This document shows, in pieces, positions 8,536 through 64,000 of a stretch of DNA of 64,000 nt (positions are counted from its first letter, which is position 1; every line of letters begins with the position of its first letter). The stretch lies in assembly GCA_973895155.1 (NCBI GenBank), contig OZ316893.1, positions 17,428,770-17,492,769 on the forward strand. Direction: 5' to 3'. The position numbers were made by a program, and so were the translations under genes. The DNA comes from Marsupella aquatica. Taxonomy: Eukaryota; Plantae; Marchantiophyta. A model generated the notes under the pieces. That model made no database searches. It saw only the letters and a program-made list of their open reading frames with translations, and had not been told where the DNA came from.

Positions 8536-8709
8536 CCCCCCTAGCTGGGAGTGAGGTCCCCTAACTTTAGCTAGCCAGAAGTTCTAAAAGGTTGATATAC
8601 ACCTTTTTAAGTGTGGAGATCAAGAGGCCGGGTGCAAGTGAGCCCCATCGATCACCTTCCTGCAATCTATATCTTCCATGAGAACACAAATGGTAACTAG
8701 TCGGCTTCA

Positions 8710-8847: not shown

Positions 8848-8849
8848 CT

Positions 8850-9340
8850 TCAAGCCGGCATGAACATGAGCCAAACTTGGATCTACAGTACCATCAATGT
8901 TTGAAAGATGACATGGTGCACAATTGCGCACATGATCCTTCCAAACCATACCATCACATCCTTCCACTTTAGGACACCAGAAGGCAACATTTTACACACA
9001 CGTAAGATTGTCCGACCTGCGGTCACATCAAGTGTCGTTGCTACTATTTGCTGCAAATAAACAAAATCACCAGGATGAAACTGTCAAATCCTTGCACGAT
9101 AACCTCCTCCATGAATAGTGGCATACCTAAAAGTATCACGATGTTGGGCAATGGCAAGGCTGTCAAAGGCCATGGGCATGATTCTTTCAAAAACTTGTGC
9201 CATTTCTGAACACACCTTGACCCTAACATCGGGATCATCCAAATCCACAATAATTGCCACATCACAACGAATAGTCACTGGCAAATCTGGCTCTCTACCA
9301 TAGAGCAAGAAATAAGGTGAGAAGGATGCAAGTGATGCTT
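8850..9340 (-). pseudogene. Integrase C-terminal remnant of copy A (zinc finger and most of the core deleted)
   Basis: SPYFLLYGREPDLP...AMAFDSLAIAQHRDTFRYA; joined to post-RNase H linker near 9340. Confidence 0.75.
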
Positions 9341-9553
9341 ATGGAGCAACCACGCAAATATTTCAACACCCTCTTGTCGTTATGAATATCTTGCTGTCCA
9401 AAAACTACCTCATCAACATCCATATCTGAAGACTCAACGTCTACCCCATCCAATGAAGTAGAGTCCACAGATCCACTATATGTTGGAACCCAACAAAAAA
9501 AAGGCAGATGCATGCCATCCTGGCACACTCTCCTTATCTGACTCATCATGCCA

Positions 9554-10960: not shown

Positions 10961-11057
10961 TCATACTAAATGCAAAAAAATTCCAATAACTCTTCAAGAA
11001 TTGATGCATGCAATGTCTCTCCCTCCCGGTCAACTTAGGACCAATCTGTGGTTCCCA

Positions 11058-11245
11058 ACTCTCCATCAAAGCTGTGACATCTTCCTTTGGAGTTGAAGAG
11101 GCCACAAGCCGTGGGCTGTGACTCTCCATCAAAGCAGCAGTGACATCTTCTTTTGGAATTAAAGAGGCCACAAGCCGTGGGCTGTGACTCTCCATCAAAG
11201 CTATGACATATTTTTTTGGAGTTGAAGAGGCCACAAGCGTGGGCT
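11058..11245. repeat. Three ~63-69-bp tandem units in the copy A DNMT-RT linker
   Basis: ctctccatcaaagc...gaagaggccacaagccgtgggctgtga x3; not seen in copy B. Confidence 0.8.
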
Positions 11246-11449
11246 ATGGATGGAAGAGACAATCGCTTGTTGCTATTTATCAATGGTTTGAGCAACTTCC
11301 TTTTGCTCAACAATTTGTTCTGCCTTGGCCAATCCTGCCATAGGTCCATCAATTTTTTGCTCGCCCCTAGCTGTGGCTGATACTGTCTGCTCACCAATGG
11401 ACGATCTATAACATTAGAAGTGTGCATTTGCAATTGTTCAGCTAATCCC

Positions 11450-11650
11450 AAGCTGATAATCCAAGTCAAGCAATTCAAATCCATGGCTTGACCAAGGACC
11501 TGACAACGTGAATGCTCCGACGTCAAGGGCACTGCCATGGTGCTAGTAAAAAATCCCATAGTTCGCTCTCTCTCATTAGCGGTAGGCTCTACTAGTTGTT
11601 GTAGAGTTGTATCTCACACAAGTCCAAGGCCACCTGCTCAAAATGCGTGA
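11450..11650 (-). pseudogene. DNMT3-like domain of copy A, C-terminal piece (motifs IX-X)
   Basis: EPTANERERTMGFFTSTMAVPLTSEHSRCQVLGQAMDLNCLTWI resembles DNMT3 EMERVFGFP...RQRLLGRSWSVPVI. Confidence 0.8.
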
Positions 11651-14600: not shown

Positions 14601-15266
14601 CCCTCTGATTGTTGCCGGTCCGGATCTCCAAGTTGAGCTAAAATTGTCTGGTTCTCATACTCCTCTGCTTCTTCGTCGGTCAGAATCCGGTCCATGGAGT
14701 ACAGGTTAGCCAAATAACATGAGAGGGAGGTGGGAGTCTTCAAATGAAGATTCCAGACTTCCTTAGCAATGACCCCCTCCAGAACCTTCGCCCAAGAAAC
14801 CTTTTTCTCACCAACGTAGGAAGCAGCAATGGTGTTCCCACTCAATCGAACAATCATCCACTTCCCTCATAACCAGTCCTCCTTACGACTAGTGCCTCAA
14901 AACGGTAGCCTCGTCCGGCTCTATTCTCTCCTATGGTTTCTCGCGAAATATTTCAACAGCAGTTCGGTGGTGCGAGGAATGCCTGGTCTACAGTGGTCTT
15001 AAGAACTCGGTCGCCAACTTTCAGTCTCTGACCGGATGTTAAACCTATGGTTTTAATCGTCATTCCCATACGCCTTCTCTCGTGGTGCAATGGTGCCGGT
15101 ATTTTCAAGTTCCAAAAAGGGTGCTATCCGGATATTTCCGGATTTCATACTGCAAGTTAGTTTTTATGATCATTTACGGTCTCAATATACTCTATAAACC
15201 ACTAAAAGGAGAAAATTTCAAAATTTTCCACTTTTTAATTTCTTTAGTTATAACCATGGTATCACA
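11655..15266 (-). mobile_element. ~3.6-kb insertion in the copy A DNMT; probable giant solo LTR (family 3) with a degenerate ORF at ~13750-14860
   Basis: Interrupts sequence that is contiguous in copy B (~54010); right end ...ggtatcaCA; left end and TSD not clean; ORF KVSWAKVLEGVIAKEV...LSCYLANLY followed by a coiled-coil-like segment. Confidence 0.55.
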
Positions 15267-15648
15267 AGCATAATGGCTCACAAAAGTGGGTAATGCACAA
15301 TGCGGACGCCCAACTACATTCACCACTGCCAATGGAGTTTGATAAGATTGGATAACACTTTGTGCACGACGCCGTGGATCCAAAATACCATCCACCACTA
15401 AGGTTGTTGAGCGAGGTACAACATCAAATGCTCGCTTCAAGACCTCACATGGTAGCAAATAGTCCACCACAATTGTGGACAATGTGAACCACACGTGCAG
15501 CATCCAATAACACTGTAGGTCCAATCCAATATCAAACCTAATGAACACTAGCAACAATTTGATGATGGTCATCACCCAATAATGGCACATTCTCCAAAAT
15601 GTATGCAAAAGAATGTGTCTGATGCATCTGGAGATGGCGCGACACACA
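15267..15648 (-). pseudogene. DNMT3-like domain of copy A, middle piece (motif VI ENV, degenerate motif VIII, TRD)
   Basis: FAYILENVPLLGD (ENV at 15586-15594); DAARV..LWWT; GRPHCALPTFVSH. Confidence 0.82.
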
Positions 15649-45082: not shown

Positions 45083-45440
45083 TAACATCTCCCACAATAA
45101 TGCAGATCTTGGATCATGAAATACATGTCCAATTCCAGCCCGAGATTGACCCTGACATGGCCAACCCGCAATCACCAAATCAATGGGGCCAACACGATCC
45201 AAATGATTTTCCCCCAATAATGAAATATCAGCAGGCAATGCATGCTGATAACCATGAACGACATCCACTGGCAACAACTATGGATAACGTTCCACCAACA
45301 TTGCTACATGACATAGTGAGATCCTCAGTGTTATCTCATCATTTTCCATGTACAAGCAACGACGCATGGGAATTCTTGCTTGAAGAACAACAGCCAATCC
45401 AGTGCTAATCCCACCAAATAGATCCAACAAACAAATACCC
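45083..45440 (-). pseudogene. DNMT3-like domain of copy A, N-terminal piece (motifs I-V, intact catalytic PCQ)
   Basis: ICLLDLFGGISTGLAVV (motif I), YMENDE (II), ADIS (III), GPIDLVIAGWPCQGQS (IV; PCQ 45152-45160), DPRSALLWEML (V). Confidence 0.92.
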
Positions 45441-45811
45441 TCCTTTGGATACTGCCACGCAATAGGAGCGGTATCCAATGGTGAAAGGGTCACTGGTCCA
45501 TCTGCAAAAGACTGTTGTGCTCTTGACTTTGGTGTGAAAGCATGACGCTAGGCATCATGTATCAATTGGGCCACATTTTGTTGCAAGGCCTCTCCAGTAC
45601 CCCATACTGGTGCCACAATAGTATCAATAGGTAATACACCCATCGTGTGTTCCTCACGTGGCTCCTCCATTGCCGGAACATCTGTTGGATGTGCGTTACC
45701 TTCAATCAAATCATTAGATCTAGTAATCAAACTACTAAATGTTGCCAAAGACAATGGTGCAAATTTAGGACCACCCATAGGTCCACTAAATCGCACTGGC
45801 AATCGGCTCAA

Positions 45812-46153
45812 TCAAGCATCTCTAGATTGCCAATTGGGTCGATACGACACCAACTCATCCCAAAAATCAAGAACAAATCCCATAGGATAAAGTACTGTAC
45901 ATCCCACTAACACATCATATGACTTAGGCTTAGTCAAAATAGCTTGAGCTTGGATCCGTGAGTTATCCTTTGGATGATCCCCTTGAATCCTAAGTTCAAG
46001 TGCTTGTCTGGTGATATGTTGTTTGGGTGTAGGTCCTCCCAATGAAGTCTGAAAGGGAAAGGGACACTCCTCAAAATTATCTGGACGTAATCCCAATCCT
46101 TGTATTGCAGACTTACCCAACATCAAGGGTTGAGCACCAGTATCTAGTAACAC
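45812..46153 (-). pseudogene. Retroviral-type aspartic protease of copy A
   Basis: VLLDTGAQPLMLG...YDVLVGCTVL. Confidence 0.85.
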
Positions 46154-46419
46154 TCGTTCTGACTGGTATATTGCTCCAAAAGGCCCAACTAATCAAAAGA
46201 TATCACTCCAATTATCCCATGATACCACACTAGGTTTAAACCTAGTTCTCTCAAAGGCAAGGCGTGTTTGTAACTCCATCAACCTCGCTGCTACTGCTTG
46301 CCATGTTTCACCACTAGCAATAGGTGGAATCAACTCCACAACTTCAGAATTTATGCACTATCTCTGCATGAGAAGCAACAACTGGAGTGTCTTCACATAA
46401 TGTGGCCGCCAATCTGAAC

Positions 46420-47019
46420 TATCGTGCGCATACACATCGCTACACAACATACATCGCTTGTCACATACATCCAAACATAGTCACACTGTCACATCACAAA
46501 CATGAGAGAATGGAATACAAGTGGAACTCATGTCCACACATGTCCAAAACCCACAATAATCTCAATAGAATCAAACCTCGATCGATGCCAAAATGCACTC
46601 AATCCTGTCCGATCCGATCACACACATATGTTGAGCCAACGCACCTTGCACTCAAGGAATCCACGCTACATAGAGAGAGCTCTTACCCACCATAGCTACC
46701 ACTTGAGCTCTCCTCTCCAAGGCTCAACATCAAAAGATAACCTTTTGATGCCTCACAAGAGAGCACTACCCTCTTACATAAACCTAACAAAACCTTATTG
46801 GCTCATATAGCACACATACTAAACATATGGATCTAGATAGTACAATACACTCTAACACTACCTAGAATGGTGTGATAGCTGTCGTGCGCATACACATCGC
46901 TACGCAACATACATTGCTTGTCTCATACATCCAAACATAGTCACACTGCCACATCACAAACACGAGAGAATGGAGTACAAGTGGAACTCATGTCCACACA
47001 TGTCCAAAACCCACAATCA
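46420..47019 (-). repeat. 3' LTR of copy B, with 140-bp direct repeats at both ends (46420-46559 and 46880-47019)
   Basis: tgtcgtgcgcatacacatcgc...cccacaatca at 46880-47019, near-identical copy at 46420; adjoins PPT. Confidence 0.82.
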
Positions 47020-47193
47020 CCCCCCTAGCTGGAAGTAAGGTCCCCTAACTCTAGCTAGCCATGAGTTCTACAAGGGTGATATACACCTTTTCAGGTGTGA
47101 AAATCAGGAGGCCAGGTGCAAGTGAGCCCCATCGATCACCTACTTGCAATCCATATCTTCCAAGAGAACACAACTCATAACTAGTTGGCTTCA

Positions 47194-47331
47194 CCGACAC
47201 TAAGGACACAACCATGATCCACTAAGAATCATCTGGAATGGTGGTGTCAAACACGACATGTGTCATCCTCTAGAACACTTATCACAAATCGATATAGTAG
47301 CTGCTCCCTGAGCAAATCCACACAACATACA
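47194..47331 (-). pseudogene. PHD finger of copy B
   Basis: CMLCGFAQGAATISICDKCSRG*HMSCLTPPFQMILSGSWLCP*CR. Confidence 0.88.
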
Positions 47332-47339
47332 CTTCAAAC

Positions 47340-47830
47340 CAACATGAACATGTGCTAAGTTGAGATTCACTGTACCATCAATGTTTGGAAGATGACATGG
47401 TGCACAGTTGCGCACATGAGCCTTCCAAACCATACCATCATGTCCTCCAACATTAGAACACCAGAAGGCAACACTTCACGCAAACGTAAAATGGTCCAAC
47501 CTGCGGTCACATCAAGTGTAGTGGGTGTTGTCTGCTGCAAATGAATATAATCACCATGATGAAATCACCAAATCCTGGCATGATAACCTCCTCCACAAAT
47601 AGTGGCATACCACACACTTAGCTATCAGTCATTGGACATGAGTGTGCATACCACGCCACCAATATTGTGTCTGCAACAAGCTGTAAGTGCGCTTCACACC
47701 AAAGTGACCCAACTCCTCATGCGCATGTCGCACCAAATGTACTTGTTGTGATGGTTTTGGTACCACCAATACCTTACCATCACGTAGTACTCTCAAAAGA
47801 TGGTTTCCTTCCCATCAAAACCTCTTGGCT
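47340..47830 (-). pseudogene. Integrase remnant of copy B (zinc-binding region and C-terminus; catalytic core deleted near 47612)
   Basis: HEELGHFGVKRTYSLLQTQYWWRGM..AKCVV joined directly to YATICGGGY. Confidence 0.75.
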
Positions 47831-48479
47831 CTTTGCAAAACCCTGTCACGCTCCTTGGCATCAACACTACCACCAATAGAACCAATGCGCAGGTATTCCA
47901 ATACTCTCTCATCGTTGTGAATATCCTGTTGTCCAACCACAACCTCACCAACATCCATATCTGTAGACTCATCATCTACTTCATCCAATAAAGTAGAGTC
48001 CACAGATCCACTGCATGCTGGAACCCAACAAAGGATGACAAATGCATGTCATCCTGGCACCATCTCCTTATCTGACTCATCATGCCATCTGGCTCTAGTC
48101 TCATCCTCTTGACTGGGACATGGATTGCAGCTCAATCCATCTACATCCAAGTTCACCTTTCTAGGCCTATGCACATCCTGGAAATCATACTCTTGTAACA
48201 ACAATGCCCATTGTGCAAGCTTTCCTGTAAGCTTGTCAGACTCCATTAACCACTTGAGAGGCTGATGATCAATGATCAAGGTGAAGGGGTTACCAAACAA
48301 GTAGCAACAAAAATGTGCCATAGCCCATACTGCTGCCAAACACTCTCCCTCATAAAAGCTATACTTAGCCTCTGTTGCATTGTTTGATCTACTAGCTTAT
48401 ACCACAACAAACTCATTCCCCTCATCATCCTTTTGAGTCAGCACTGCTCCAAGTCCTACTCCACTCCAATAAGTGTGTA

Positions 48480-51400
48480 TGTCACGTCGTCGGCTTCAGC
48501 CTTAACTCAGACTTCAGCTTAGACGGGCACATCCCTCGTAAATCTGAGGGTTCGGGCAGGAAGGGAAGCACGTAATGCACCTTATTCTCGTAAACTAGCG
48601 CTAAGTGCGCATACTGCTAAATACGGACACCTCCTAGGTATGGTTTGTGTTCCGCCGCCGGAATGTACCTTAGTCGATAGCAAGATCGACCCCGGCTTAA
48701 GGGCTTCTAAGCCTTCGTGCTGTCCGCCTTCGATCTGGATTCGATGATACAGGTCCTCAACCCGTGCTCACAACCACTTACCCGTAGGAGCTGCACCCTG
48801 TGCACGTCTCGGGTAGTGCGTTCGGCCTGGCCCTGCCACCCATATACGAGAAACCCACACACATACACGCGCACATGCATACAATCTCGATTTACACGAA
48901 GGAAAATGATGGGAAAGGATTTTACTACAAAGGGAACATATGCGTACACTTAGTTGACCCGACAGCCCCAGAATGAACAGGTTCAAGGCCGAGGGTGCAC
49001 ACTACAATGGAGCCCGGCTCCGCACTCACCCGGCGAGCTTAGTCCTACCCCCCCCTTTGTACTCTTTCATTCCCAGAGGTCGGGACTCCCCACATATACC
49101 GCGGACGTCCAACTCTGAAACTAAAACCCCCCCTTGACTCTACCGAGGGGTGCACTAAATACTAAGGGCCGAGGGACGGGGTGTCCTCTCGCCGAAGATT
49201 CGCTGACTAAGGTCCTAACTAAGCTGACAGTCAGGCCGGAAAACGGCTGTGTCTTATTAGAAGATCCTAGATACGCAGGCTGGACAACATGGCGCGCTGC
49301 TGTACCTAAGGCAGGTGCCTGTCCCAAGAGCCTGACTAAGCCAGTCCTAATCCTAATCTATTCCTACTCCGCTGCTAATGCCTGGCACGCTTGCCAGAGC
49401 CGCCCGAATGGGAGCGGCCATCCGGCTGCCTTCGAAGCCTGTCATTGTCCACCTTGAGGAGCTGGACCTGGTCCAGCAGAGATTCGTTCTCTCGCCTCAC
49501 CGTGTCCGTCTCCTCTGCTGCCTCCTGACATGCCTCCTCCAGCTGCTGGACGTCGCTCGTCAGTTTACCCGCCAGCTGGTCCTGCTTCTCGGCCTCGGTT
49601 TGGAGCCGCGCCACCTCGGCCTGTAGCGTGGCTATCTCCGCCGTGTCCCACTGGGCCTGTTCCTCGGCCTCCTCCAGGTCTTTCTGCCAGGTGACAGTTT
49701 GATTCTTCAAACTGTCAATCTGCTTCCGGAGTCGTGTAATCTCGGCCTCGTTCCCAGCTTTGGCCTGTTCGGCTAGGGCGGTAAGAGCGTGCGCCTTTGC
49801 TAACAACTCATCGGCGGCTGCAACCTTGGGTCGTAGTTGCAGAAGCTCAGCCTCTTGAGCCGCAACTTCATTCTTTAGGTACACGGACTCCACCCGGTAT
49901 CGCTCTATCCTCTGAAGGGCCTCTGATTGGGCCCGACCTGCCTTTACTACGGCAACCAACTCCTAATTGAAGAAACAGGCTACCTTCCAGGCCATGAACT
50001 CCCCGGCATCCCGGGCAATTTGATGAGAGAAATCTCCCAGAAGCCCGTTCAGAAATGTACCCGGTACGAAGAGTTTCGGGTGGTCCAGGTTGTGCCTCTC
50101 CGGAGTTGGGCACGGGCAGACGTCAACACGCGCGGGGGCCGGGGCAGTGACATCCAGCCCTAGGGACGTAACGTTGGAAGGGGCTGGAGTGTCCTCCTAC
50201 AGCAATGTCCGGTTCTCCGGAATAGCCACCGGTGGGTCTTTGGGAGACCCGGGCTCGGGTAAGACTTCCGCCGTACCGACTTCTATACTTAGCCCGGCTT
50301 GTTGGGTCGCATCAACGGTTGCGACAACCGACCCATCCGGTACCTCCTCGGTTACGACTACAGCTACTTGTGGAGGTGGGGTGGGTGAAGCTGGCGTGTC
50401 CGCTGGACTTCGGGCCTCGGGTTGGGGCCGTCTCTCCAAGGCCGGGAAAACCCACCTAGCTGGGACCAGCTTTGTAACGTTGACACGGGGAAGGGTTCAT
50501 CGATCAAACCGAGCGTACCACTCAAGAATGATCTCAATGTGGCTAGCAAAATATGCCTTCCCGCCAATGTACAGCGTCTTCCTTCGCCGCTCCATCTCTT
50601 CATGGAATTTCTTAGCGAAGTACGACGCCCACTTCCTAGGTCGATAGTTCTCGACCTGGATAACCTGGGCGGCGGAGATCTCCCCCCGGGGTTCCATCAT
50701 GTGGAGGGCGTACCTCTGGAACTCTAGTCGCTCAGCTATCTCGGGGATGAGGCAGGTCCTCATCACGAACCCGTTGTCCACTGCTCCCTCTGAGGGAAAA
50801 CTTGAAGATTGGTACTTGGCTCCCTTGCCCCCGGGAGCCCGTGATTCGACTCGATGGTCACCTTCGGGTAACCTGAAGATCATCCTGAGCCGTTCTTCTG
50901 TGAGGGACATACTCCTTCCCCGTAGCTGAGTATGTTGATGCGCGTCGTCATAATTCCTGACGAACTCCGTCATGTCCTCCCCGTAGTACCTACAAGTGTT
51001 CCAGGGGAGGGAGGCGAGGTGCTTGAATCCCTGAGTCTTCAGGTACACCGCATGCTTGGGATGGAGGATGTTTTTGTGAATGTTTTCCCCCATGCGGTGC
51101 ATCGTCACCCTGGCTACAGCTACCGTGGCCAACGGTAACCCGGATGCAGTGGCGGATTCCTTCCTCTTCTTCCTCTGTGACTGGCTTGGGGAAGGTGACA
51201 CTTCCCCATCCTCCCGATCGGGCCTGGGTAGTGCCACTGCCGTTAGTAACGGGCCCGGGGCGGCCACGGTCACCATGTTGTTTGCCGGGGCCGCTCCTGG
51301 GGTCAGGGCAGGGGGTGGGGACGATATAGTGTCGGCCCCCTGAGCGCTTGTTCCTCTGGGCCGCCTGGTCAAGGGTGGGGTAGCCTCGTCGTCATTGCTA

Positions 51401-52484
51401 AGATCCGCAGCGTTGATGACAGAGCGTACTTGTGCTGGTTGGGCGATCGGTGGTGGGGTTTGGCTAGGCTGCGGCTGAGGTTGAGCCTGAGGTTGAGCCT
51501 GAGGTTGCATGGGTACGGGTACGGGTACGGGTTCGACTGAGTTGGTCATGTTGGTTGATGGCCGAGTTCCCATGAAGCTCTGTAGGTGCTGGTAGAAGTT
51601 CTCCGAAGTGAGTGCAAACGACCTTGTCAAACGGGTAGTGCTGGACTCACTGTTGATGATAGCCCGAACCTGAGCAGGGATGTGGTCAAAGTGATGTCGT
51701 TGCAAGTCGATTGTACCCGGGATATTGAAGACCTCGTCCGGAAGCCGAAGCAATGCTTCCCAGAAACCGATATATTTGTCTCCGTTGAAGAAGTACCCAG
51801 ATACCTCTGCTGGTCGGTAAAGCTCGCTCTGAGACGGGTAGTCAAAGTTAAGGATGTAGAGGTGTTGTCCTGCTAGGCGGATGGCTCTCTCGTACTCGCG
51901 TTCGATTTCGTATCGGTGCGGGTTGGCGTGTTTCAATGAGTCGGCCAAGTGCCTTCCGATAGATAGGAACTGCGTCCAGAATCGAATCACCGAGCTGGAG
52001 AGGATCGTGTGCGACATTCAGAGGAGATAGTAGTGGCGACTTTAGAGCGAACGAGAGAGTTGGGGTCAAAGTTGGCGCGTGGACTGATGGACTGGTGCAC
52101 TACAAAGGGTTGGCTCCCCTTTTATACCTTGAGGGCTTGTCGATCCCCCGACGTCTCCTCGACGCCATAGGCTGAACCGCTCACGCTTGTGGTGTACCGG
52201 CCACTCCGCCGGTCTGAGTCAGCGCGTGTCAGTGGCCGCTTCCTTAAGTTCGTTATACGGACCCGAGGGAGGGGCCCCTCCACGCTCGTAACCCGGGTGT
52301 GCAAATAGCGATCCGCCGCCAGTCCAAACCTGAATTCCCCCTTATTGCCTAATGATGTCCTACCCATAATGATTACCTAAATACTGTCGTTATGCTAATA
52401 ATAGCGGCCTAAGACACTCCTAACGCACGTGCTAAGCACAGTTAGACCGAATCACTCATTAACCGCCGTACCGGCGGCGTCACA
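48480..52484 (-). mobile_element. Giant solo LTR, family 1 (4005 bp), inserted in the RNase H of copy B
   Basis: TG...CA termini; 5-bp TSD GTGTA (48475-79, 52485-89). Confidence 0.92.
49375..52017 (-). pseudogene. LTR-internal ORF of family 1; one 880-codon frame broken only by point-mutation stops
   Basis: ORFs 52017-50497, 50439-50197 and 49959-49375 are in the same frame; N-terminal domain, Pro-rich linker, KKRK, PMD-like core, coiled coil. Confidence 0.82.
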
Positions 52485-53809
52485 GTGTAGCTGAAATGGT
52501 CTCCCTGAAATGGGTCTTTTCAAAATAGGGGATGATGCCAATCTTTCTTTCAATTCCTGAAAGGCATGCTCCTGGTCATCACCCCAAATCCACTCCTGAT
52601 CCAACTTAGTGAGTATGGTTAAAGGTTTAGCAAGGTGGCTAAATCCTTTAACGTACCTCCTGTAGTAGCTCGCCAATCCCAAGAATGCACATACTCTACT
52701 CACATCAGCAGGACAAAGAATCTGTGTAATGGCCTCCACCTTAGTTTGCTGCACACCCAATCCCCCTGGGTAGATAGTGTCATGGCCCAAATACTCAATC
52801 TGGTCTTGGAAGAACTTGCACTTGCCAGGGTGGAGTTTCAACCCATGTTCTCTCAATCTCTCCAATACAATCTACAAGTGGTGCTAATGTTCTTCCATAG
52901 TGGAAGAATAGACCAAAATATCATCAATGTAACATCTCACAAAATCCAAACGTGCAAGAATTTGATCCATGACTCTCTAGAATTCAGCTGGTGCATTCTT
53001 CAACCCAAATGGTAAGAACAACCACTAATACAAATGATCCTTGCCATGCAAATCAATTCCCCATAATGCTGTTTTGGACTTGTTAGAATGTTTGATTGGA
53101 AGCTGATGGTACCCTGCCCTCAGATCCAATGAACTAAAAACCTTTGCATGCCCCATTGCATCAAAGATCTCCTTTGGTGTGGGCATGGCATATTGATCAG
53201 ATTTTGTCTGACAATTAATAGGTCGGTAATCATCACACACGCGCCTATCCGTGTAATTGCCATGCACATCCTGCTTCGCTGGCATCACTATGGCAGATGC
53301 ATACTCCTAGTATGAGATCTCCACCAAACCAGCCTCCAACAAATCCTGAGTTCTGCTCCCAATCAAAGCTCTCTCCATGTCACTATAACGGTATGGTCTA
53401 CGAAAGATTGGCGCATCACTAGCCAATTCAATCTGAATACTAGGGCCCTTCAATGTCCCCAAATCCTTCATGCTAAATGCAAAATAATTCCAGTAACTCT
53501 TTAGGAATCAATGCATGCAACGTCTCTCCTCCCCTGTCAACTTAGAACCAATCTGTGGCTCCCAACTCTCCACCAAATCTTTGATGTCTTTTTGTACAGT
53601 AGAAGAAACAATCGATGGTTGCTATTTAGCAGTAATTTGAGCAGCTTCTTCTTGCTCAACAATATGTCCAGCCTTGGCCAATCCTGCCATAGGTCCATGG
53701 ACTGTCTGCGCGACCCCATCTGTGGCCACTATTGTCTCAGTAGGCCACAAGCTCACCAATGGACAACCTGTAACACCAACAGAGCGCATCCAAAACTGCT
53801 CTGCTACTC

Positions 53810-54252
53810 TCAAGCTGACAATCCAAGTCAAACAATTCAAATCCATGGCTTTGCCAAGGACTTGGCGGCGTGAACTCTCTAACATAGATGCAACAGCAGT
53901 TGTATCTGTGGAGAATCCCATGGTCCGCTCTCTCTCATCAGTAGTGGGCTCTACTAACTGTCGTGGAATTGTATCCCACACAAGTCCAGGACCACATACG
54001 CTGAAAGCATAAGAAGCAAAATGGCTCACAAAAGTGGGTAATGCACAACGTGGGCGCCCAACCACATTGACTATGGCCAATGGAGATCTGTCAAGCTGGG
54101 TCACACCCTGTGAAAGACGCCTTGGATCCAAAATATCATCCACTACCAAGGTTGGCAAGCAAGGAATGCTGTCAAATGCTTGCTTCAACACCTCACCTGG
54201 TAACAAATTAGTCCACCACAAATGTGGACAATATGCACAAGAACCGACACGT
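53810..54252 (-). pseudogene. DNMT3-like domain of copy B, C-terminal half (motif VIII, TRD, IX, X)
   Basis: RVGSCAYCPHLWWTNLLPG (cf. DNMT3 SAAHRARYFWGNLPG); ERERTMGFSTDTT..RRQVLGKAMDLNCL. Confidence 0.88.
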
Positions 54253-55089
54253 TGTCGTGCCGAAAGATTTCGGCTTAGGAATGGCTTTTATAGGGGATGA
54301 TGGGCGAGGCCTCCCGGTTGGGTTGCGTACATGCTGACTCGAAGGGGCTGCTTGGTTGGATGGATTGAGGTTTGGTGATTGGGTGACTCGTCGTCACCAG
54401 GTTTGGTGTTTGGGTGGGTCACCAGGCTTGGAGTTTGGATGAGCCTCCCTGATGGCAGCTGGCTCAGACTGGATGGTTGGGTTTCCGATACTACTTAAGA
54501 CTTGAGCCTCAGCTCATTGAGGTTGGCGGTTATCTATTGAGATCTGTTGAGTTGCATCCTGTGAATTCCGCTCCGTTCTATGGAACTCGACTGTTGTGCG
54601 GCGGTTTTGGAGTTCTAAGCGAGTGTTGGATCCAGGTGTGGATTTTTCGATCCAGGCGGGGAATTTCTCGAGTTTGGAGTCTCGTTGATCCAGGCGAGGA
54701 TTTCTCAAGTTTGGAGTCTTGTCGATCCAGGCAAGGATTTCTCGAGTTTGGAGCCTCATTGGTCCAGGCCCGAGTTCCGTGTGAGCTGTTTTAGACTAGT
54801 GGAGTAGCTAGTCGAGTTTTGGTTTTGTGAGCTAAGGAGGATAGTTTTTCCGTCAGATTTTGAGTAGTTAGTCACTCGAGGAGTTCTACTCAACAAGTTA
54901 GAGGTAGCGGCCAGCTACCAGACTCTTGCGGGCAAGCTTACTCGAGGGCACCTATTGTAACCTTTGTGAGAAAAGTAAAAAATATAAAGGAGTGAGAGTT
55001 CGCTCCAAAAAGTGCTTGTCGCCTGTCCCGATCACAGCCAGATTCGCGCAATTTGCCCGAGGAGCCCCTAACTTTAAGTCCTCGCGACA
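54253..55089 (+). repeat. 5' LTR (837 bp)
   Basis: tgtcgtgc...ctcgcgaca; highly similar to 59755-60603. Confidence 0.95.
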
Positions 55090-55090
55090 T

Positions 55091-55108
55091 TGGCGACCAT
55101 ACTGGGGA
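55091..55108 (+). promoter_or_regulatory. Primer-binding site TGGCGACC..., possibly tRNA-Arg
   Basis: TGG one nucleotide after the LTR end; tRNA identity inferred from memory of tRNA 3' ends. Confidence 0.7.
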
Positions 55109-55130
55109 GTCCTTGGGGCGATTGGATAAG

Positions 55131-56990
55131 ATGGCTGACTATGAAGAAGTTGATCGGATATCGAGCATCATCATGTCGATGATGAGAACCATAAGGAAGG
55201 AAGAGCTTGAGTCAGAAAGGGCAAACAGGGAAGTGAATAGAACTACTCAGTGTCTCCAAGAGGTTCTGAAGGAGAATGGGCAGTTCGATGGGAGAAATGT
55301 GACAAGCTACATTAAGTCTTACTTGACAAAAGCAGCTGTCTACAAGTTGGACGAAGGGACGGCCATGAAAGAGTTCATGGTGCTGGTTGAGAAGGAGTTG
55401 AGTTCGATGGTGCGGACCATCGTTGAGTCAGCTGAGGGCTGGGATGACTTTGACCAGAAGATGAAAGAGGAGTTCCAAGCAGAGGATGCTAATCGGGTCA
55501 CGCAGGCTACCTTCTTGGATTGGGTGAATGACAGGAACAAGAAGCTGAAGGGGCCGCAAGAGCTCCTAAGGGAGTTCAAGAGAAGGGTGTCTCAGTTACC
55601 AAAGCGGGATGTGGGAATCATCGAGTTGCAGCGCTCGACGCTCTTCTTGAGGGCAGCCGATGAGGACCTTTGAGAGGAGCTTGAGAACATGATGGAGCTG
55701 CTGGAACCTTCAAGAGTTACCTTGTCTAACGACTGGAACCAAGTTGAGAAAGTGGTGTCAAAAGTGAGCAATCGACACCGGCGGCGAGAGCTAGACAAGG
55801 AGGCTACCACTCTCGACCTCAGGCCGCCGAAACCAATATTGACGAAAGGGAAGCGAGAACCAACGAAGGATGAGATCAAACCATCGGTGGATGATCTTGC
55901 AAAAATGATGCAGAACCTGAAGATCTTGGTGGCACATGTGGTCGAGAATCCAAAACCAAGGGTTGCAAGTGCTCCCGAGAGGAAGCGAGAGATGCAGAGT
56001 TGGCCATGCATGTGGTGCGACAGCAAAGAGCATGACAAACGGGAGTGCCTGGACCTGAGGGAAGCTGCGGATAAAGGGCTGATCAAGTTCGTTGGTAAAG
56101 TTGGTCGGAAAAAGATATCGTTTGCCGATACTGAAGAGCCGATTCCATTCAACTCCAACAAGGGAGGCATGAAGGCTTTGGCTAAGAAGCGAGCTGGGAA
56201 GCGAGTCGAAGAGGCGTCCTCTTTGCACCTGGAAGCAAATGTTTACAATGTGGAGTTGGATGGCCCCGTGACGGAAATGGACAAGTTTTACAAGCGCTTG
56301 GCGGATCTGGTGCGAGAGAGATCCGGATGGAGTGACCCGGTGCTGATCAATGCGATAACGGTTGAGGTTGGGGCTAGTTGGGATGCCTCGGTCGAGTCAA
56401 AAAGGAAGAAAACTGATGAGGATGACACTCCGTCTCAATCAGGGGAACGAGAGAGGCGGGATACTCGAGACAAGGAAAGAAGGGTTAGGTTCGAAGAAGA
56501 GGAAATGAGCGAGAAAGAGCCGGAGAAAGGGAAACCGATCAGGAAGGACTCGGGCTGGGTGCTTGGCAGGGATGTGGACCAGGCCATGTACCCGGAGGTT
56601 GTAGCTGAGAAGTTCTGGAGCCAACAGGCTCAAGGGTTTACCAATGCCGAGTTCTTTGGCAGTATGAGGCGGGAGATCCAAGAAGCGATCTTGGAGAGAT
56701 CCAAGAGGAAACGGATTTACAAAGAGGGCCCTCACACCTTGATGGGGGAGTCTGGCAAGACGGAAATTGGGAGTTTCCGAACTTACACTGCTGGGGTGTC
56801 CATGGGTTCAGGTAGTAAGCCTGCTGGCCCCAAAGAGTCAGACTTGGGGAAACCAAAGAGGGTCAAGTCCCTTGAAGAGGAGCTCATGAGCTTGGATGAT
56901 GAGTTCTTCGATGCAGAAGAGGAGCTCATGGGAACCGGAAGCGAAGCTGAGTCTGTGGCAAACAGGGACCCGACCAAAGGGGGAGAATGA
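55131..56990 (+). pseudogene. Gypsy gag with CCHC knuckle, one premature stop at 55671
   Basis: FDGRNVTSYI; CMWCDSKEHDKREC. Confidence 0.85.
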
Positions 56991-57104
56991 GAAAGCGTTA
57001 CCGCGCAGTCGAGGACCATTCATGTCATGGGCTCAATGAAAGGAAATGGTTATGCTTACCGAGATGGATACTGGGCTTGAGCAAGTCCAGAGAGCGAGTG
57101 CCAG

Positions 57105-59500
57105 TTGGAAGGAATGGAAGGCAAGGTGCAGGCACTCATTGATACTGGCTCGGAGATCAACTTGATGGATCCAAAGGTGTTTCAAAAGGGGAATTGGCCG
57201 GTGGATAATAAGTTGCTTTGGAGTGTGAACTCGGTGAGTTCAATGAAGGACTGTCTTTGGGGCGGATGTCCGAATGTGATGGTGAAGTTCGGGAATGTCA
57301 AGCAGGCTTGTAACATTTTTGTTCATGAGCACTTGTCGTTTCCGGTGATACTGGGCATGCCATTCATCACTGAATGGAGGATGGAGACGAAGGTTCTGGA
57401 TGATACTACCTTCATGGTGAAGGTTTGGAGCAAAGATGGGAAAGAGGTGGTTCAATTTCTGGCTGTTTTACCTGGAAACGAGAGGAATAGGAAAGGGTTG
57501 AGGATTGAGAGTGCCGACTCTGGTCCAGGTCCGGAAAACAACTTGGCACTTCGCTGAAAAGAGTGGATTGGCGGAGTGCTTGTTCCTTAGCTCCTTGTGA
57601 AGGGGAAAACACGATGGATAATGGAGAGGAAGAGCCACTCGAATGTGCGGAGTCTAACTTGGGAAGGGACAAGCTGGAGAAGGAGTTGGAAAGGCAATAC
57701 TCGTCTATGGCAGTGCTTGTATACTCGAGTACCAAATACAAGACGGTTGACAAGAAGGTGAGGCCGGCGGCGATACCTTTGCCGGACGATGCGATGGAGG
57801 TTATGGATCGAGCAAGATTGGAACCAAGGCTGAGGCCAACTGATCGGATAGGGCATAAGTTTACTCAAGGGAGTTTGGCAAAGCTTAAGATTGGTTTGGA
57901 TGGGTTACTTATGGAGGTGGAGCAAGTGGCATTTCGAAAGATGATAATGGAGCATGGCAAGGCATTCTCATTTTTGATTGAGGAGATTGGTTGTGCGGAC
58001 CCGAGTAAGGTGACACCGATGGTCATCTTTACTATCCCTCATGTTCCGTGGGATCTGAAACCGATTTCGGTTCCACCGGCTTTAGCTCCAAAGCTTGCAG
58101 AATTGCTTAAGGAGAAGCTGAGTGCTAGGATTCTCGAGAGGTCTGATGCTCCTTACTCAAACAGATGGTTTACAGTGAGAAAGAAGAATGGAAGCTTGAG
58201 GTTCATTCAGGATATGCAACCTCCGAACAAGGTGACCATCAGGAATGTGGGAGTTGGGCCACTCGTGGATGAGTTTGCAGAGGAGTTTGCTGGGAGGGCA
58301 ATCTACTCCATGGGTGATTTGTTTTTGGGTTACGACCAATTCCAGTTGGCGCAAGAGAGCCGAGACATTACAACTATGAGGACCCCGTTGGGCCTCTTGA
58401 GGATGTGCACTCTTCCTCAAGGGGCGACAAACTCAGTAGCGCACATGCAAAATGCGATGAGTAAAATCTTGGAGCCGTTCATTCCGGTAAAAGCGAGACC
58501 ATTCATTGATGATGTCCCGATAAAGGGGTGCTTGGCTGAAGGGAAGGATGAGACATTGAGAAGTGATGGGATCCGGCAGTTTGTGTGGGATCACATTGTT
58601 GATGTTAAGGCGGTTCTCGAGAAGCTGATTGATGTGGGAGTCACTCTTTCGGGGAAGAAGTCTGAATTCAGGATGAAAGAGGTGAAAGTCATTGGGCAAA
58701 TGTGCGGATCTTATGGAAGGAAGCCAAACATGGATAAGGTGAGAGCTATTAGCGAGATGAAGGATTGTGAATTGGTGCCGGAAGTTTGGAGGTTTCTGGG
58801 TGCTTGTGTCTTTTACAAGATCTAGATCCCTCACTTCTCGCACCTGGCGGACCCGCTCTATGAGCTGTTGAGGAAAAAGGTTAAGTGGAGATGGCTACCG
58901 GAGCATAGTGAAGCAATGGCTAAGCTTAAGAGCGCTCTCATGAGCCCGCCAGTTCTCCGAGCTGCAGACTATGAGAGCGGGCGACCACTGATCATGACTG
59001 TTGATGCGAGTCCGTTCGCAGTCGGGTGGGCTGTTGGGCAAGATGACAAGAATGGGGAAAGGTATGCGATCAGATTTGGGGCAAAAGTTTTTACGGAAAG
59101 GCAAAGGAGATATGCTCAAGTTAAGAGGGAGCTTTGGGGTGCCAAGGTGGCACTCCATCAGGAGAGGAACTATTTGATTGGGGTGCCGATGGTGGTTGAG
59201 ATTGATTGCCAATTGTTGCTGGGGACGATTGCGAATTGTGACACGCCTGACATAGCAATACTCAGGTGGATCGCTTTCATTTGGATGTTCAACCCTGAGC
59301 TAAGTCACATTGCAGGAAAGTATAATCCGGTTGCCGACATGCTGTCAAGGGTGAGATTTGGAAATGAGTAGCAACGAGAGTTGGCGAGGTGATCGGAACT
59401 GAAAGTGTTGGAAGTCTAGAGTTCAAGGAAGAACTCTACTCGGGAGAGTTGCTGGATATCGGGCGTTACATTAGCACTTTGGAGAAGCAACCAGAGTGGA
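57105..59500 (+). pseudogene. Gypsy pol: protease, RT, RNase H (in-frame stops; integrase missing)
   Basis: ALIDTGSEIN; GYDQFQL, LPQGATNS, PFIDDVPIKG; TVDASP, KRELWG, NPVADMLSR. Confidence 0.92.
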
Positions 59501-59754
59501 GTTACCAAGAGGTCCTGGTCCAGGCGCATCTGTTGGACTTGAGTTTCGAAAGTGGCTTGACTAGTTCTGATTCGGATGAGTTGGACTTTGAGTTTCTGGA
59601 AAGTGGAGTGCCTAAGGCCGAGTCTGAAGGCTTTGGGTTTGATTTTCTTGAGGAGGAAGTGGTCTAGGCGCATGGCTCAAGTTTGGACTCAGACTTAGAG
59701 GAAATCTGATGGATTGGAGCAGACCGGAGGCTGCTCAGGTTTACTGGGGGAGGA

Positions 59755-60603
59755 TGTCGTGCTGAAAGATTTCGGCTCAGGAATGGCTTTTATAGGGGAT
59801 GATGGGCAAGGCCTCCCGGTTGGGTTGCGTGCATGCTGACTCGGAGGGGCTGCTTGGTTGGATGGATTGAGGTTTGGTGATTGGGTGACTCGTCGTCACC
59901 AGGTTTGGTGTTTGGGTGAGTCACCAGGCTTGGAGTTTGGATGAGCCTCGTTGATGGCAGCTGGCTCAGACTGGATGGTTGGGTTTCCGATGCTACTTAA
60001 GACTTGAGCCTTGGCTCATTGAGGTTGGCGGTTGTCTATTGAGATCTGTTGAGTTGCATTTTGTGAGTTCTGATCCGTTCTACGAAACTTGACTATTGTG
60101 TGGCGGTTTTGGAGTTCTAAGCGAGTGTTGGATCCAGGTGTGGAGTTTTCGATCCAGGCGGCAAATTTCTCGAGTTTGGAGTCTTGTTGATCCAGGCGGG
60201 GATTTCTCAAGTTTGAAGTCTTGTCGATCCAGGCGAGGATTTCTCGAGTTTGGAGCCTCGTTGGTCCAGGCCCGAGTTCCGTGTGAGCTATTTCAGACTA
60301 GTGGAGTAGCTAGTCGAGTTTTGGTTTTGTGAGCTAAGGAGGATAGTTTTTCCGTCAGATTTTGAGTAGTTAGTCACTCGAGGAGTTCTACTCGACAAGT
60401 TAGAGGTAGCGGCCCGCCGTAGGGCCATCTACCAGACTCTTGCGGGCAAGCTTACTCGAGGGCACCTATTGTAACCTTTGTGAGAAAAGTAAAAAATATA
60501 AAGGAGTGAGAGTTTGCTCCGAAAAGTGCTTGTTGCCTGTCCCGATCGCAGCCAAAAATGCGCAATTTGCCCGAGGAGCCCCTAACTTTAAGTCCTCGCG
60601 ACA
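59755..60603 (+). repeat. 3' LTR (849 bp)
   Basis: Follows the PPT; matches 54253-55089 with a small insertion near 60414-60425. Confidence 0.95.
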
Positions 60604-60607
60604 ACGT

Positions 60608-61125
60608 GCAGCATCCAATAACACAGCAGGTCCAATCCAAGACCTCACCTGATGAACACTGGCAACAATCTGTTGACGATGATCACCCAAGAGTAGCATA
60701 TTCTCCAAAATGTAGGCTGGAGGCCGTGTCTGGTGCAATTGGAGATGACGCAACACCCGTAACATCTCCCAAAATAATGCAGATCTTGGATCATGAAGTC
60801 CATGTCCAATTCCAGCTCTAGATTGGCCCTAACATGGCCAACCAACAATCACCAAATCAATAGGGCCAACACGATCTAGATGATCCGCCCCCAACAATAA
60901 AATATTAGTAGGTAGTGCATGTTGTTAGCCACAAATAGCATCCACTAGCAATAACTGTAGAAAACAATCCACCAACATAGCCACATGGCGCAATGAGACT
61001 CTTTGTGTTGTCTCATCTATCTCCACATACAAGTAACGATGCACAAGAATTCCTACTTGAAGAATAGCAGCCAACCCAGTGCTAATCCCACCAAATAAAT
61101 CCAACAAACAAATACCCTCCGGTGA
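60608..61125 (-). pseudogene. DNMT3-like domain of copy B, N-terminal half (motifs I-VII)
   Basis: ICLLDLFGGISTGLAAIL, YLYVEIDE, GPIDLVIVGWPC* (PC at 60832-37, Q changed to stop), DPRSALFWEML, AYILENM (60697-60705), GPAVLLDAA. Confidence 0.92.
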
Positions 61126-61313
61126 ATATTGCCATGCAATGGGAGTGGTATCCAATGGTGAAAGAGTCACCGGCCCACCTGCAGGAGATTGCTTTGCTCC
61201 TAGTTGTGGTGTAAAAGTATGATGCCATGCATCATGTACCAATTGTGCTGCTGTTTGTGGCAAGGCCTGGCTAGTACCCCACACTGGTGGCACAACACTA
61301 CCAACAGATAACC

Positions 61314-62955
61314 TGTGGTGCGTCCCATGGCGCCCCAAACCCAAGAAACCCGCCCGCACAAGCCGATTCCCGCAGGTTTCGTCCTTGACGAGGCCGTTTC
61401 CGCGGCTTAGCGGCATGAGATGCTGCTAATCTCCTCTACTACTACTATTAACATTTTACACACATATACTGGACAGATCCTTCATCGGGTCATGAGATAC
61501 TTAGCCGGCCTATTCTAGGCCCTCCCTTGTATTCCTCTCCTGGTCTTCCATTAGGTATGTTTGAATTCCGCCGCCGGAATGATCCCCAATTGGCTTGGTT
61601 AAGCCGCTAAGACCTCTCTCAGCTCGACACATCCATCTCTCACTCCCTTGCTACTTCCCTTCATTGATGTGGGCACTCTTCACACAAGTTAATGCGACAC
61701 ACAAATAGCAAAATGACTCCTTCTGACTAAGTTATACCATGCACTTGCCATACAAACAGTACATCTCATACACAAGCTCTGCGAACTAAGCCGTGAGGCC
61801 AACTCTATTCAGTTCTTAGGCATGAGGAAACATGAATATACACAAGGGTCACTGTATAACTAACCAAGAGCTTCTCTTACTACTTGATCCCAGCCCTGCT
61901 GGTGCAACTAAAAACTTGCTAAAGAAGAGGCCCTGAACTCCCCGCAGCCCAGGTATTTATCCTGGTTGTGGATCCGCCTGATTCCTTGCAGCATAAGCCT
62001 AATCCACTTACTATAATCTACCTAACTGTAATCTACCTATGTAGGGTCGCCGCCCAGCCTTTCCAGGTGTCATCATTTGTTGGAATGGCATTGATGGGAT
62101 CGACCTCCTCCTCTTCGGCTTCTCCCTGCCTCCTGTTCTGCTGCTCTGCTGGTTTCCTTGGTGCCACCGACCTTGTTCTTTTTGCCGGGGTGGCCTCTTT
62201 GTTGTTGTTTCCTTTCCTCTTCATCTCGGCTGCCGTGGATGTTTCTCCTAGCACAGTTGCCTTTGTCCACCCTTCCGTGCTACCCTTCAACTCCCAGTGC
62301 GCGTCGTTGCAGCGGTTGATGGCTTCCCGAATGCCGACGATTCTATCTTCGCAAAATAGAAGGTCATCAAGCTGATTGGCAGTAGGAGTCCACAAGAACT
62401 CGGCCTTGATGAGTTCTCCTCCTAAGAAGGCAGACCTCTGCAGCTCCCACAGTCGAGCGAGCTCCTGCCATTCTCAAGCTGCTCTCTCCAATTCTTCATC
62501 CTCGTAAGTCCCAATGTACTCAGTTGCCTGTTCAAATAGACATCCCCAAAAATGTGTCGCTTGATTGACGTTGCTCATACCCTCCTTGACTCGATCATTG
62601 GTATCTGTTCCCACCCAGAGTGCTTGCCTAAGCAGCTGACAGTATTTGGCCTCCCGTAGTCATCTGCCCAACTCGTGCTTGCAAATGAGCCACTATTCCT
62701 CGCGAGCGGTCCTTACCCCTCTCCTCCTCTGGTCTTCCCTCCCGTTGGTCACCCCTAGCCACCAACGCTTAGCGCGCCCTAACCCTAATCGTGTTCTCTC
62801 CCCCGACGTCCTTACTTCCAGCCTCGGCCCGGGTTCCATAGTCACCCCTAATTGTTTATATTTTCCTTGTCTTGTTACTATACTAAGGTGTTTCCAGGGT
62901 ACACTCCTGCTTTTACCATGTAAACCGGCCTAGTGATTCTTGGCTAGGCATCACA
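61314..62955 (-). mobile_element. Internally deleted solo LTR of family 2 (1642 bp)
   Basis: TG...CA termini; TSD TAACC (61309-13, 62956-60); reverse-complement match to both ends of 39680-44351 with a deletion junction near 62043. Confidence 0.9.
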
Positions 62956-63099
62956 TAACCTATGCATGACTTGCTCCTCATGTGACTCCTCCACTGCTTG
63001 AACATCTGCCCTCCATCAAATCAATAGGATCAGTGATTACACCACTAAATGCTGCCAAAGGCAATGGTGTAGATTTAGGGCCTTCCATAGGTCCACTAA

Positions 63100-63450
63100 A
63101 TTGCACTGGCAATCTGCTCAATCTAGCATCTCCTGATTGCTAATCAAGTCAGTCTGAAATTGATTCATCCAAAAAATCAAGAATAAATCCCATGGGGTAC
63201 AACACTGTACATCCCACCAACACATCATAGGACTCTGCCTTAGTCAAAATAGCTTGCGTCTGTATGTGAGAGCTATCCTTTGCATGACCCTCCTGAATCC
63301 GCAAGTCAAGTGGTCGTCTGGTGATGTGCTATGTGGGTGTAGGTCCCCCCAATTGGAAAGGGACACTCCTCCAGATCATCTGGATGCAATCCCAATCCTC
63401 GTATTGTAGACTTACCCCAACATCAAGGGCTGGGCACCAGTATCCAATAT
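63100..63450 (-). pseudogene. Aspartic protease of copy B
   Basis: VILDTGAQPLMLG...AESYDVLVGCTVLYPMGF. Confidence 0.85.
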
Positions 63451-64000
63451 CACTCTCTCTAGCTGGTATACTGCTCTAGTAGGCCCAACTGATTGTAAGA
63501 TACCACTCCGATTATCCAATGACACAATGCTAGGTTTAAATCTAGTCCTCTCAAATGTAGGGCGTGCTAGCAAATCCATCAAATTTGTTGCTGCATCATG
63601 CCATGTCTCACTAGTAGCAATAGGTGGTGTCAACTCTGCTACTATATAACTACATGCTGCCTCTACATGAGAAGCCAAAACTGGAGTATCCTTGCATGAT
63701 GTGGCTGCCAATCTAAACACATCAACTGGACTAACCCCCAATGTCAGCATATTTGTCACTGAAAATAATGGGGTGCGCACTATGGTGGTAGCCGCCCCCA
63801 ACAAGGTACCCGTCATCCCTATTGCAATATCATGTGATTCAACCAACCTACTCACACCTTGGTTTGTCCAAATCGGGTTCATAGAGGCAGTCTAAACTGT
63901 CTCTAATAATGTAAAAGACTGAGAAGCTTGGTCCGACAACGTCCATCCCCCCTTTGTGGATCTAGCTCCACTACTGCTCCTTCGAGATGAAGAGCTTTGG

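Follow-up and report, generated by a model that had tools for sequence, protein, structure and literature searches.

A bryophyte branch of DNMT3-bearing Ty3/Gypsy retrotransposons with a conserved stop codon between methyltransferase and reverse transcriptase

A 64,000-nt stretch of the genome of the liverwort Marsupella aquatica (GenBank assembly GCA_973895155.1, contig OZ316893.1, positions 17,428,770 to 17,492,769 of the forward strand), hereafter the window, contains two copies, A and B, of a Ty3/Gypsy retrotransposon that encodes a DNMT3-like cytosine methyltransferase (DNMT) domain between protease and reverse transcriptase (RT). Comparison with relatives suggests that members of this family in bryophytes carry a Gag-protease-DNMT frame, a conserved, probably leaky stop codon and then RT, RNase H, integrase and a PHD finger. 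We favor the reading, probable though far from certain, that the enzyme is packaged at Gag-like levels and methylates the element's own complementary DNA (cDNA). Judged from its sequences, the family is a land-plant branch of the kind represented by KnitGypsy-Dnmt3, reported from Klebsormidium nitens by de Mendoza et al. in 2018 (PMC5890265), and not a new capture.

Results

Copy B is a decayed element on the minus strand that extends from 46420 to past 64000, with its 5′ end (most of gag and the left repeat) outside the window. It is split by three insertions, each with TG...CA termini and a target-site duplication (TSD), at the coordinates given in a preliminary description of the window: insert 1 (48480..52484, TSD GTGTA, 5 bp), insert 2 (54253..60603, plus strand, TSD ACGT, 4 bp) and insert 3 (61314..62955, TSD TAACC, 5 bp). 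All motifs listed in that description were located, the minus strand of copy B reading ILDTG (~63450), LDLFGG, GWPC, ILENM, DAAR / RVGSCAYCPHLWWTNL, ERERTMGF, RQVLGKAMD and YIDD, followed by RNase H, an integrase remnant, a PHD finger, a purine tract and terminal repeats; the protease-RT-RNase H-integrase order of Ty3/Gypsy is present. When insert 2 and one copy of ACGT are set aside, both flanks (DAAR, then VGS) share one frame, as had been proposed, and five public contigs of run X1 read through the empty site at 54252 without the insert. The contigs of public runs X1-X4 have 0.24-0.36 of words in common with the window and represent relatives or diverged copies.

In 5′ to 3′ order on the minus strand, copy B comprises a Gag-region tail (63461..64000; tblastn to database proteins P0008 and P0003), a frameshift-broken aspartic protease with ILDTG (62993..63460; copy A counterpart with weak Asp_protease_2 matches; P0003, E 0.0012), the N-terminal half of the DNMT3-like domain with motifs I, IV, VI and DAAR (60604..61113), its C-terminal half with a decayed motif VIII and motifs IX and X (53796..54252), RT with YIDD and the start of RNase H, interrupted by several stops (52485..53480), RNase H (48052..48479; RT_RNaseH, E 6.8e-21), an integrase remnant from which ~700 bp of the catalytic core is deleted near 47610 (47445..47979), and a PHD finger of C4HC3 pattern with two stops (47197..47331; PF00628 in the open-frame relative P0028). 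Copy A is older, ~80% identical to copy B and has the same domains; copy B inserted into it at 46419/46420. Its pieces, also on the minus strand, span protease to DNMT motif IV (45083..46419), the middle of the DNMT (15266..15645), and DNMT motifs IX-X, a TAG CAA stop (~11275), RT, RNase H, an integrase remnant, PHD and terminal repeats in the order B-A-B (7949..11633). A TSD search across the two large gaps of copy A gave no convincing pair. Both copies are dead because of internal stops, frameshifts and the deleted integrase core; the core, missing from both, is present in locus L071.

The identity of the DNMT domain was assessed by profile and fold comparison. The N-terminal half in copy B matched PF00145 at 36.9 bits (cut-off 22) and the copy A piece at 29.2 bits. 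The C-terminal half of copy B alone had no match in Pfam or PDB sequences and was 70% identical to the open-frame relative P0003. Among solved structures the best relatives of the N-terminal half were DNMT3A (E 1e-8), with DRM2 at E 0.003, and a profile of 24 family members ranked DNMT3A (E 1e-24) before DRM (1e-12) and HhaI (1e-8), its motifs I, IV-VIII and IX-X being colinear with DNMT3A, i.e. in non-permuted order. Motifs I, IV, VI, VIII, IX and X are present in that order in copy B; motif VIII is decayed, one stop follows motif IV directly after the catalytic Cys and another lies further upstream in the N-terminal half. The model predicted for P0003, which is 80% identical to the window N-terminal half, has pLDDT mostly >90 across the DNMT domain, and DNMT3A/B/C are the top matches to its fold (TM by target ~0.8). 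Profile and predicted-fold ranking place the domain with DNMT3, ahead of DNMT1, DNMT2, DRM and bacterial enzymes, in agreement with the earlier assignment to DNMT3 rather than the permuted DRM.

Conservation of the domain was then considered across the family. Each of 24 diverse aligned members (24/24) has the catalytic Cys and the Glu of ENV, and the motif VIII arginines are kept across chlorophytes and streptophytes. Ratios of nonsynonymous to synonymous substitution between copies A and B were 0.30 and 0.26 for the DNMT pieces, 0.35 for RT and 0.27 for RNase H; those between the copy B DNMT and 10 moss-like loci were <=0.25, with synonymous sites near saturation. By these ratios the DNMT domain is under purifying selection in the family.

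Relatives were numerous. Longer homologues of the DNMT half number 27 among database proteins, and those with a species name come from Marchantia, Calypogeia and Sphagnum; many Marchantia polymorpha copies are annotated as 'hypothetical' or as DNA methyltransferase genes. Relatives are also encoded by 123 metagenome stretches, of which 80 were kept; when these were compared with seven named or reference probes, a Sphagnum protein was the nearest for 76 of the 80. With the congruent trees described below, these counts dispose of the concern, raised in the preliminary description, that the domain might be a one-off. A profile search gave 466 clusters at E <1e-30. Named distant members with the protease-DNMT order come from Klebsormidium (GAQ93235.1), Closterium and Mesostigma, and those of Haematococcus and Chromochloris have the order RT-RNase H-DNMT-integrase-PHD. 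No vascular plant occurs among the named matches listed, and word-limited searches do not prove absence; viral contigs gave one weak locus (L081, 30% identity), excluded from all counts. No chromodomain match was found in any relative scanned and no tyrosine recombinase match in 24 + 18 proteins scanned; DUF3444, which host plant DNMT3 carries, was not reported in any family member scanned.

As a separate observation, P0028, P0182, P0201, P0372, P0383 and ~100 others form a large group of apparently intact green-algal Gypsy polyproteins in which the homologous DNMT follows RNase H and precedes integrase and a PHD finger is also present. The DNMT position in this group is shifted relative to the streptophyte form, and motif IV is often WEC, not WPC.

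Trees of DNMT and RT were built by a quick SH-aLRT method and drawn at midpoint, unrooted. The DNMT tree drew on 50 of 70 prepared rows, modified by the removal of 9 near-duplicates, thinning of the RT-first group and inclusion of one Mesostigma row, and the RT tree on 45 of 46 rows, for which 30 of 109 RT-first proteins were picked at random. Copy B clusters with bryophyte elements with support of 100 in the DNMT tree and 99 in the RT tree. All 11 rows with DNMT before RT form one RT clade (98), and in the RT tree bryophyte rows group with those of Closterium (98), the Klebsormidium protein having no RT. Chlorophyte DNMTs form a separate clade of the DNMT tree (98, 22 rows); the deep forks of that tree, including the placement of bryophyte versus Klebsormidium rows, gave no firm order. 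No root or direction of domain movement is claimed, because the single outgroup is a long branch. The DNMT and RT trees agree. The bryophyte elements, as placed by these trees, share descent with algal DNMT elements, and the pattern fits one old capture retained through streptophyte history.

The junction between DNMT and RT contains a conserved in-frame stop. Downstream of the DNMT, copies A and B share AAA TAG CAA in the same frame as RT. In copy B the TAG (53624-53622) is followed by CAA CCA (together 53616..53624, minus strand) and lies 78 codons past the start of motif X; most public contigs have TCA in place of CCA, and both fit CAR YYA, which behind UAG is the readthrough signal of tobacco mosaic virus (PMC2754532). 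The junction was located in 50 of the 80 loci fetched, with TAG at the stop position in 32, TAA in 16, TAC in 1 and GAG in 1; after duplicates were merged, a stop was present in 42/44 distinct moss-like loci. A Gln codon occupied the position in 0/50 loci, and control Gln and Trp codons read as stops in only 11/55 and 5/54 loci, respectively. Database proteins end at similar points: with X as the start of motif X, P0003 and P0305 end at X+78, as in copy B, Calypogeia P0013 at X+100, an offset equal to that of the moss-like stop, and four Marchantia models at X+96 to 98. The position of the stop shows that the bryophyte DNMT closes the Gag-protease frame, on what would be the abundant side of a Gag/Pol-type boundary, and the stop is likely leaky. 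DNMT and RT thus do not share one open reading frame (ORF) in bryophyte members; they are in the same frame and would be joined only by readthrough. The earlier statement that pol carries a DNMT between protease and RT holds for the order and fails for a continuous pol, since the conserved stop ends the Gag-protease frame.

Several observations weigh against bulk synthesis of the DNMT through a leaky stop. Four other Marchantia models differ in their ends or by splicing (P0016 and P0023 at X+180, P0021 at X+36, and P0012, which skips the region). Copy A continues CAA CAA. The moss-like context is CAA CCC, which agrees with CAR YYA at 5/6 positions. Three codons past the stop, 49/50 moss-like loci have an in-frame ATG that is absent from the window copies; because of this context and this ATG, reinitiation or splicing could stand in for readthrough. 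Algal relatives of the same domain order have no stop (P0172, P0300, P0398, P0407 and Closterium P0227), and DNMT lies between RNase H and integrase, the commoner, chlorophyte form, in 109/118 proteins with both domains. Bulk DNMT expression is therefore not needed group-wide.

The 3′ end of copy B does not consist of a plain long terminal repeat (LTR), as first described, although the PHD finger placed before it was confirmed. On the minus strand, a polypurine tract (47018..47026), also seen in moss-like loci, directly precedes a first copy of terminal repeat B (138 bp, ending in CA; 46880..47017). This is followed by the second copy of terminal repeat A (~320 bp; 46558..46877), whose first copy is expected, from the layout of full-length loci, at the 5′ end outside the window, and by the second copy of B (46420..46557), which forms the right end of copy B inside copy A. 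The two B repeats are 95% identical, and the 3′ 'LTR' is a split repeat of X-Y-X form. At this boundary 27-38 contigs per run exit at 46422 into unrelated flanks, and 8-9 contigs in three runs carry copy A on beyond 46419. Four full-length loci have the layout A-coding-B-A-B and other relatives A-coding-B; two full-length direct LTRs around the coding region were not found, the window having the B-A-B 3′ end only.

Since the window lacks 5′ ends, the TG end, primer site and TSD were read from relatives. Elements there start with TGTCA and finish with GACA, and a 4-bp TSD flanks all nine loci with both ends (6 exact, 3 with one mismatch), among them L029 with an exact TGTG duplication. The inner B/A junction, CA-GC-TG, is the palindrome GACAGCTGTC and corresponds to the two element ends with two further bases between them. 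At this junction the window copies differ by a G-to-A change, missing from most contigs: the junction of copy B (46873..46884) reads CA-GC-TA, and C at 46876, found in most related public contigs, gives the palindrome. Staggered cleavage behind CA on each strand would leave exactly the ends seen, and HIV-1 integrase is able to cut its own palindromic LTR junction in a restriction-like manner (PMC1905944). Of 17 purine-tract/B starts located, 7 continue as B-A(-B), 7 stop after a single B, 1 reaches a contig end and 2 have no B end. The B-A(-B) ends would arise from a two-LTR circle, and the single-B ends from a one-LTR circle or by later recombination. Against cutting of such circles, the arrangement A-B-A-coding-B that random cutting of a two-LTR circle predicts was seen in 0/25 5′ ends (~21 distinct sites), 22 of which lead into the primer-site motif and 3 into other sequence.

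Copies with a single B end were L015, L016, L020, L029, L030, L040 and L043; four of these, for which both ends and the TSD are present, lack any repeat and are invisible to LTR finders. One further copy with a TSD (L049:6967-14515) has a rearranged 3′ end, where the primer-site motif comes after a second A end and leads on to the B end.

The sequence following the 5′ A repeat does not start with TGG, as a tRNA primer binding site would. Its best complement lies ~172 nt inside A in 17/25 A ends, with up to 14/14 matches vs a shuffled mean of ~9. In Tf1/Tcn1 self-priming depends on a complementary site in the left repeat (PMC6317226), and by analogy we infer self-priming of reverse transcription of this type.

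Base composition was examined for traces of methylation. The observed/expected ratio of CG in the window is 0.29 in copy B and 0.40 in copy A vs 0.60-0.84 in four other window repeats. CG depletion as a mark of self-methylation was rejected, as A and B are older than the inserts and moss-like elements are not below their flanks. These elements have ratios of 0.47-0.54, at least those of the flanks in 9/9 loci, and such a lack of family-specific depletion counts against methylation of the element's own DNA. Fifty listed sites with T or A in copy B and C or G in most contigs fall into 14 CG, 12 CHG and 24 CHH contexts, with neighbors taken from the decayed copy B; loss of C/G occurs in every context, the pattern that host methylation would give.

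The remainder of the window consists of a host gene and other repeats. A phospholipase D alpha gene (3645..6258, plus strand), 86% identical to that of Calypogeia fissa, 76% to Marchantia polymorpha and ~64% to flowering plants, upholds the land-plant host deduced from it earlier and points to a liverwort, probably one of the leafy liverworts. Insert 2 is an unrelated Gypsy element (gag-PR-RT-RH) with 0.84-kb LTRs that are 95% identical; its RT is distant from the DNMT-family RTs, and a domain scan of 54253-60603 gave no DNMT or integrase match, with no room for an integrase. Insert 1 is 4 kb long, with two long ORFs and no RT. It is related to 28812-32951 and 34376-37186, 4-kb TG...CA elements with short inverted ends for which neither an RT nor an LTR pair was found within the window, and which are perhaps very long solo LTRs or non-autonomous elements. 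They encode a coiled-coil ORF and a 506-aa ORF, the latter without a Pfam match; in the Atlas, plant mobile domain proteins were a weak lead for it (score 0.82). The element at 39680-44351 (4.7 kb, TG...CA, 5-bp TSD AGGAT) has coiled-coil ORFs; insert 3 is a 1.6-kb, internally deleted copy, 93-95% identical to it, that moved independently into copy B. A large gap of copy A holds a Copia-like element (16486-20804) and a decayed CACTA-like transposase region (~22000-26000), labels that derive from ORF reading.

Discussion

The closest known system is KnitGypsy-Dnmt3, which shares Gypsy domains, an intronless DNMT3-like domain in normal motif order, the A-coding-B-A-B layout and purifying selection with the family described here (PMC5890265); the K. 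nitens protein GAQ93235.1 has the same zinc knuckle-protease-DNMT order as the bryophyte members. Given this shared order and repeat layout, the land-plant element is not an invention of its own. The two differ in that the DNMT of KnitGypsy-Dnmt3 was placed in the Pol ORF, whereas here it precedes a conserved stop, and in the land-plant host. Neither a stop nor a palindromic cut site is mentioned in the accessible text of the 2018 paper, figures aside, nor are PHD, self-priming or the length of the TSD, and its supplement text does not name KnitGypsy, Marchantia, PHD or Sphagnum (PMC5890265).

Chlorophyte DNMT-Gypsy elements (Haematococcus lacustris P0372/P0402, Chromochloris zofingiensis P0383) have a homologous DNMT and the integrase-PHD tail, but their order is RT-RNase H-DNMT-integrase-PHD in one frame and their DNMTs form a separate clade. 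Split direct repeats are also found in DIRS/PAT elements, which have a tyrosine recombinase, no DDE integrase and no TSD; the bryophyte family, in contrast, has an rve integrase and 4-bp TSDs and no recombinase match. SymbioDIRS-Dnmt3 of Symbiodinium likewise combines a retroelement DNMT3 with A-coding-B-A-B repeats and methylates CG de novo in yeast, but it is a DIRS element with a tyrosine recombinase and an independent capture (PMC5890265). Host DNMT3 enzymes (animal DNMT3A/B; Physcomitrium DNMT3a/b, PMC6453930) resemble the element domain in colinear motifs, DNMT3A/B/C being its best profile and fold matches, and differ from it in ~22% identity and in the PWWP/ADD or DUF3444 domains that it lacks; DRM, whose motifs are permuted, has a far lower score. 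Tf1/Tcn1 self-priming chromoviruses share the absence of a tRNA-type primer binding site and the complementary site in the left repeat (PMC6317226), and Chlamydomonas Gypsy-7a shares the PHD finger, a known accessory domain of green-algal Gypsy elements (PMC9940879). Both differ from the bryophyte family, which has split repeats and a DNMT and no chromodomain match in the relatives scanned.

As the preliminary description had supposed, no account of such a family in liverworts or mosses was found in the literature search, although subscription journals, Repbase-type entries, figures and preprint supplements could hold one. Papers of 2025 and 2026 in the field mention Gypsy-DNMT3, in their accessible parts, only as occurring in 'streptophytes', citing the 2018 work; the literature of the field includes PMC12344493, bioRxiv 10.64898/2026.05.21.726589 and PMC13069868. 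Relative to the accessible literature the land-plant range, the stop-separated DNMT and the palindrome-matched ends are new, and the capture itself is known from Klebsormidium.

In the mechanism that we favor, Gag-protease-DNMT would be made in bulk, so that the methyltransferase is packaged at Gag-like levels, and RT-RNase H-integrase-PHD would be supplied by occasional readthrough of the stop. The protease may release the DNMT within the particle, where reverse transcription would be self-primed as in Tf1/Tcn1 and the DNMT would methylate cytosines of the element's cDNA before it integrates; this methylation would determine in what chromatin state the new copy starts. Integrase may form the ends by cutting the palindrome in circular or end-joined cDNA, and the PHD finger may steer it to chromatin.

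Alternatively, the DNMT may act not on cDNA but on the chromosome, at the insertion site or on the integrated copy, as one half of a PHD-steered reader-writer pair. The PHD finger behind integrase in both window copies and most relatives would suit this, as would the chlorophyte DNMT directly before integrase-PHD in one frame. We nevertheless regard it as rather unlikely, although deserving some weight: in the bryophyte branch DNMT and PHD are kept apart by the stop and by the RT-RNase H block, and PHD is found also in Chlamydomonas Gypsy-7a, whose figure legend includes no DNMT (PMC9940879).

The asymmetry of the repeat ends bears on another proposal, in which the integrase cuts CAGCTG and methylation at or beside it picks which B/A junction is cut and shields the one retained, as in a restriction-modification pair. 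The element ends equal the palindrome minus its central GC, a CG adjoins the palindrome in liverwort and moss-like copies, and only one of two possible cut products is seen (7 B-A(-B) 3′ ends vs 0/25 A-B-A 5′ ends). Split repeats and DNMT occur together in Klebsormidium too (PMC5890265), and the cutting of a palindromic LTR junction by HIV-1 integrase offers a precedent (PMC1905944). The order of strand synthesis could, however, yield the asymmetry without methylation, and we consider the proposal improbable. The full combination, a lineage that packages DNMT3 in bulk via a leaky stop, primes itself, makes a restriction-like cut at CAGCTG and lets its methylase choose the junction, is likewise doubtful.

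There is also a small chance that the domain has been retained for a non-catalytic or RNA-directed function, such as binding genome RNA or DNA inside the particle. In yeast the Klebsormidium domain produced no de novo methylation, a result that its authors called inconclusive and that also counts against methylation of cDNA (PMC5890265). Gag-level expression would suit a structural role, and the Pro of the PC motif is often Glu in algal members. Set against this are the catalytic Cys, ENV and motif VIII arginines kept in chlorophytes and streptophytes, and DNA enzymes as the top fold matches. Finally, a one-off capture of host DNMT3 by copy B or an assembly mosaic, which the stacked nested repeats and the domain in pieces might suggest, is refuted: the window has two diverged copies, relatives number 27 among database proteins and 123 among metagenome loci, the trees are congruent, selection is purifying, public contigs span the empty site, and the DUF3444 of host plant DNMT3 was not reported in the family members scanned.

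A 2019 review treated methylase-encoding transposons as absent from land plants such as tracheophytes and built a hypothesis on their loss (PMC6338049). Contrary to that land-plant absence, bryophytes hold methylase-encoding elements in many copies, including in the model Marchantia polymorpha, and the question posed in 2018, to what use a retrotransposon puts a DNMT of its own, moves to a plant for which genetics and methylome data are available. The stop codon yields a prediction of enzyme dose, and the split repeats lead one to expect an insertion route that would escape LTR finders and that is not known as routine in Gypsy elements. Should the DNMT indeed choose the junction that is cut, restriction-modification logic would operate inside a eukaryotic retroelement.

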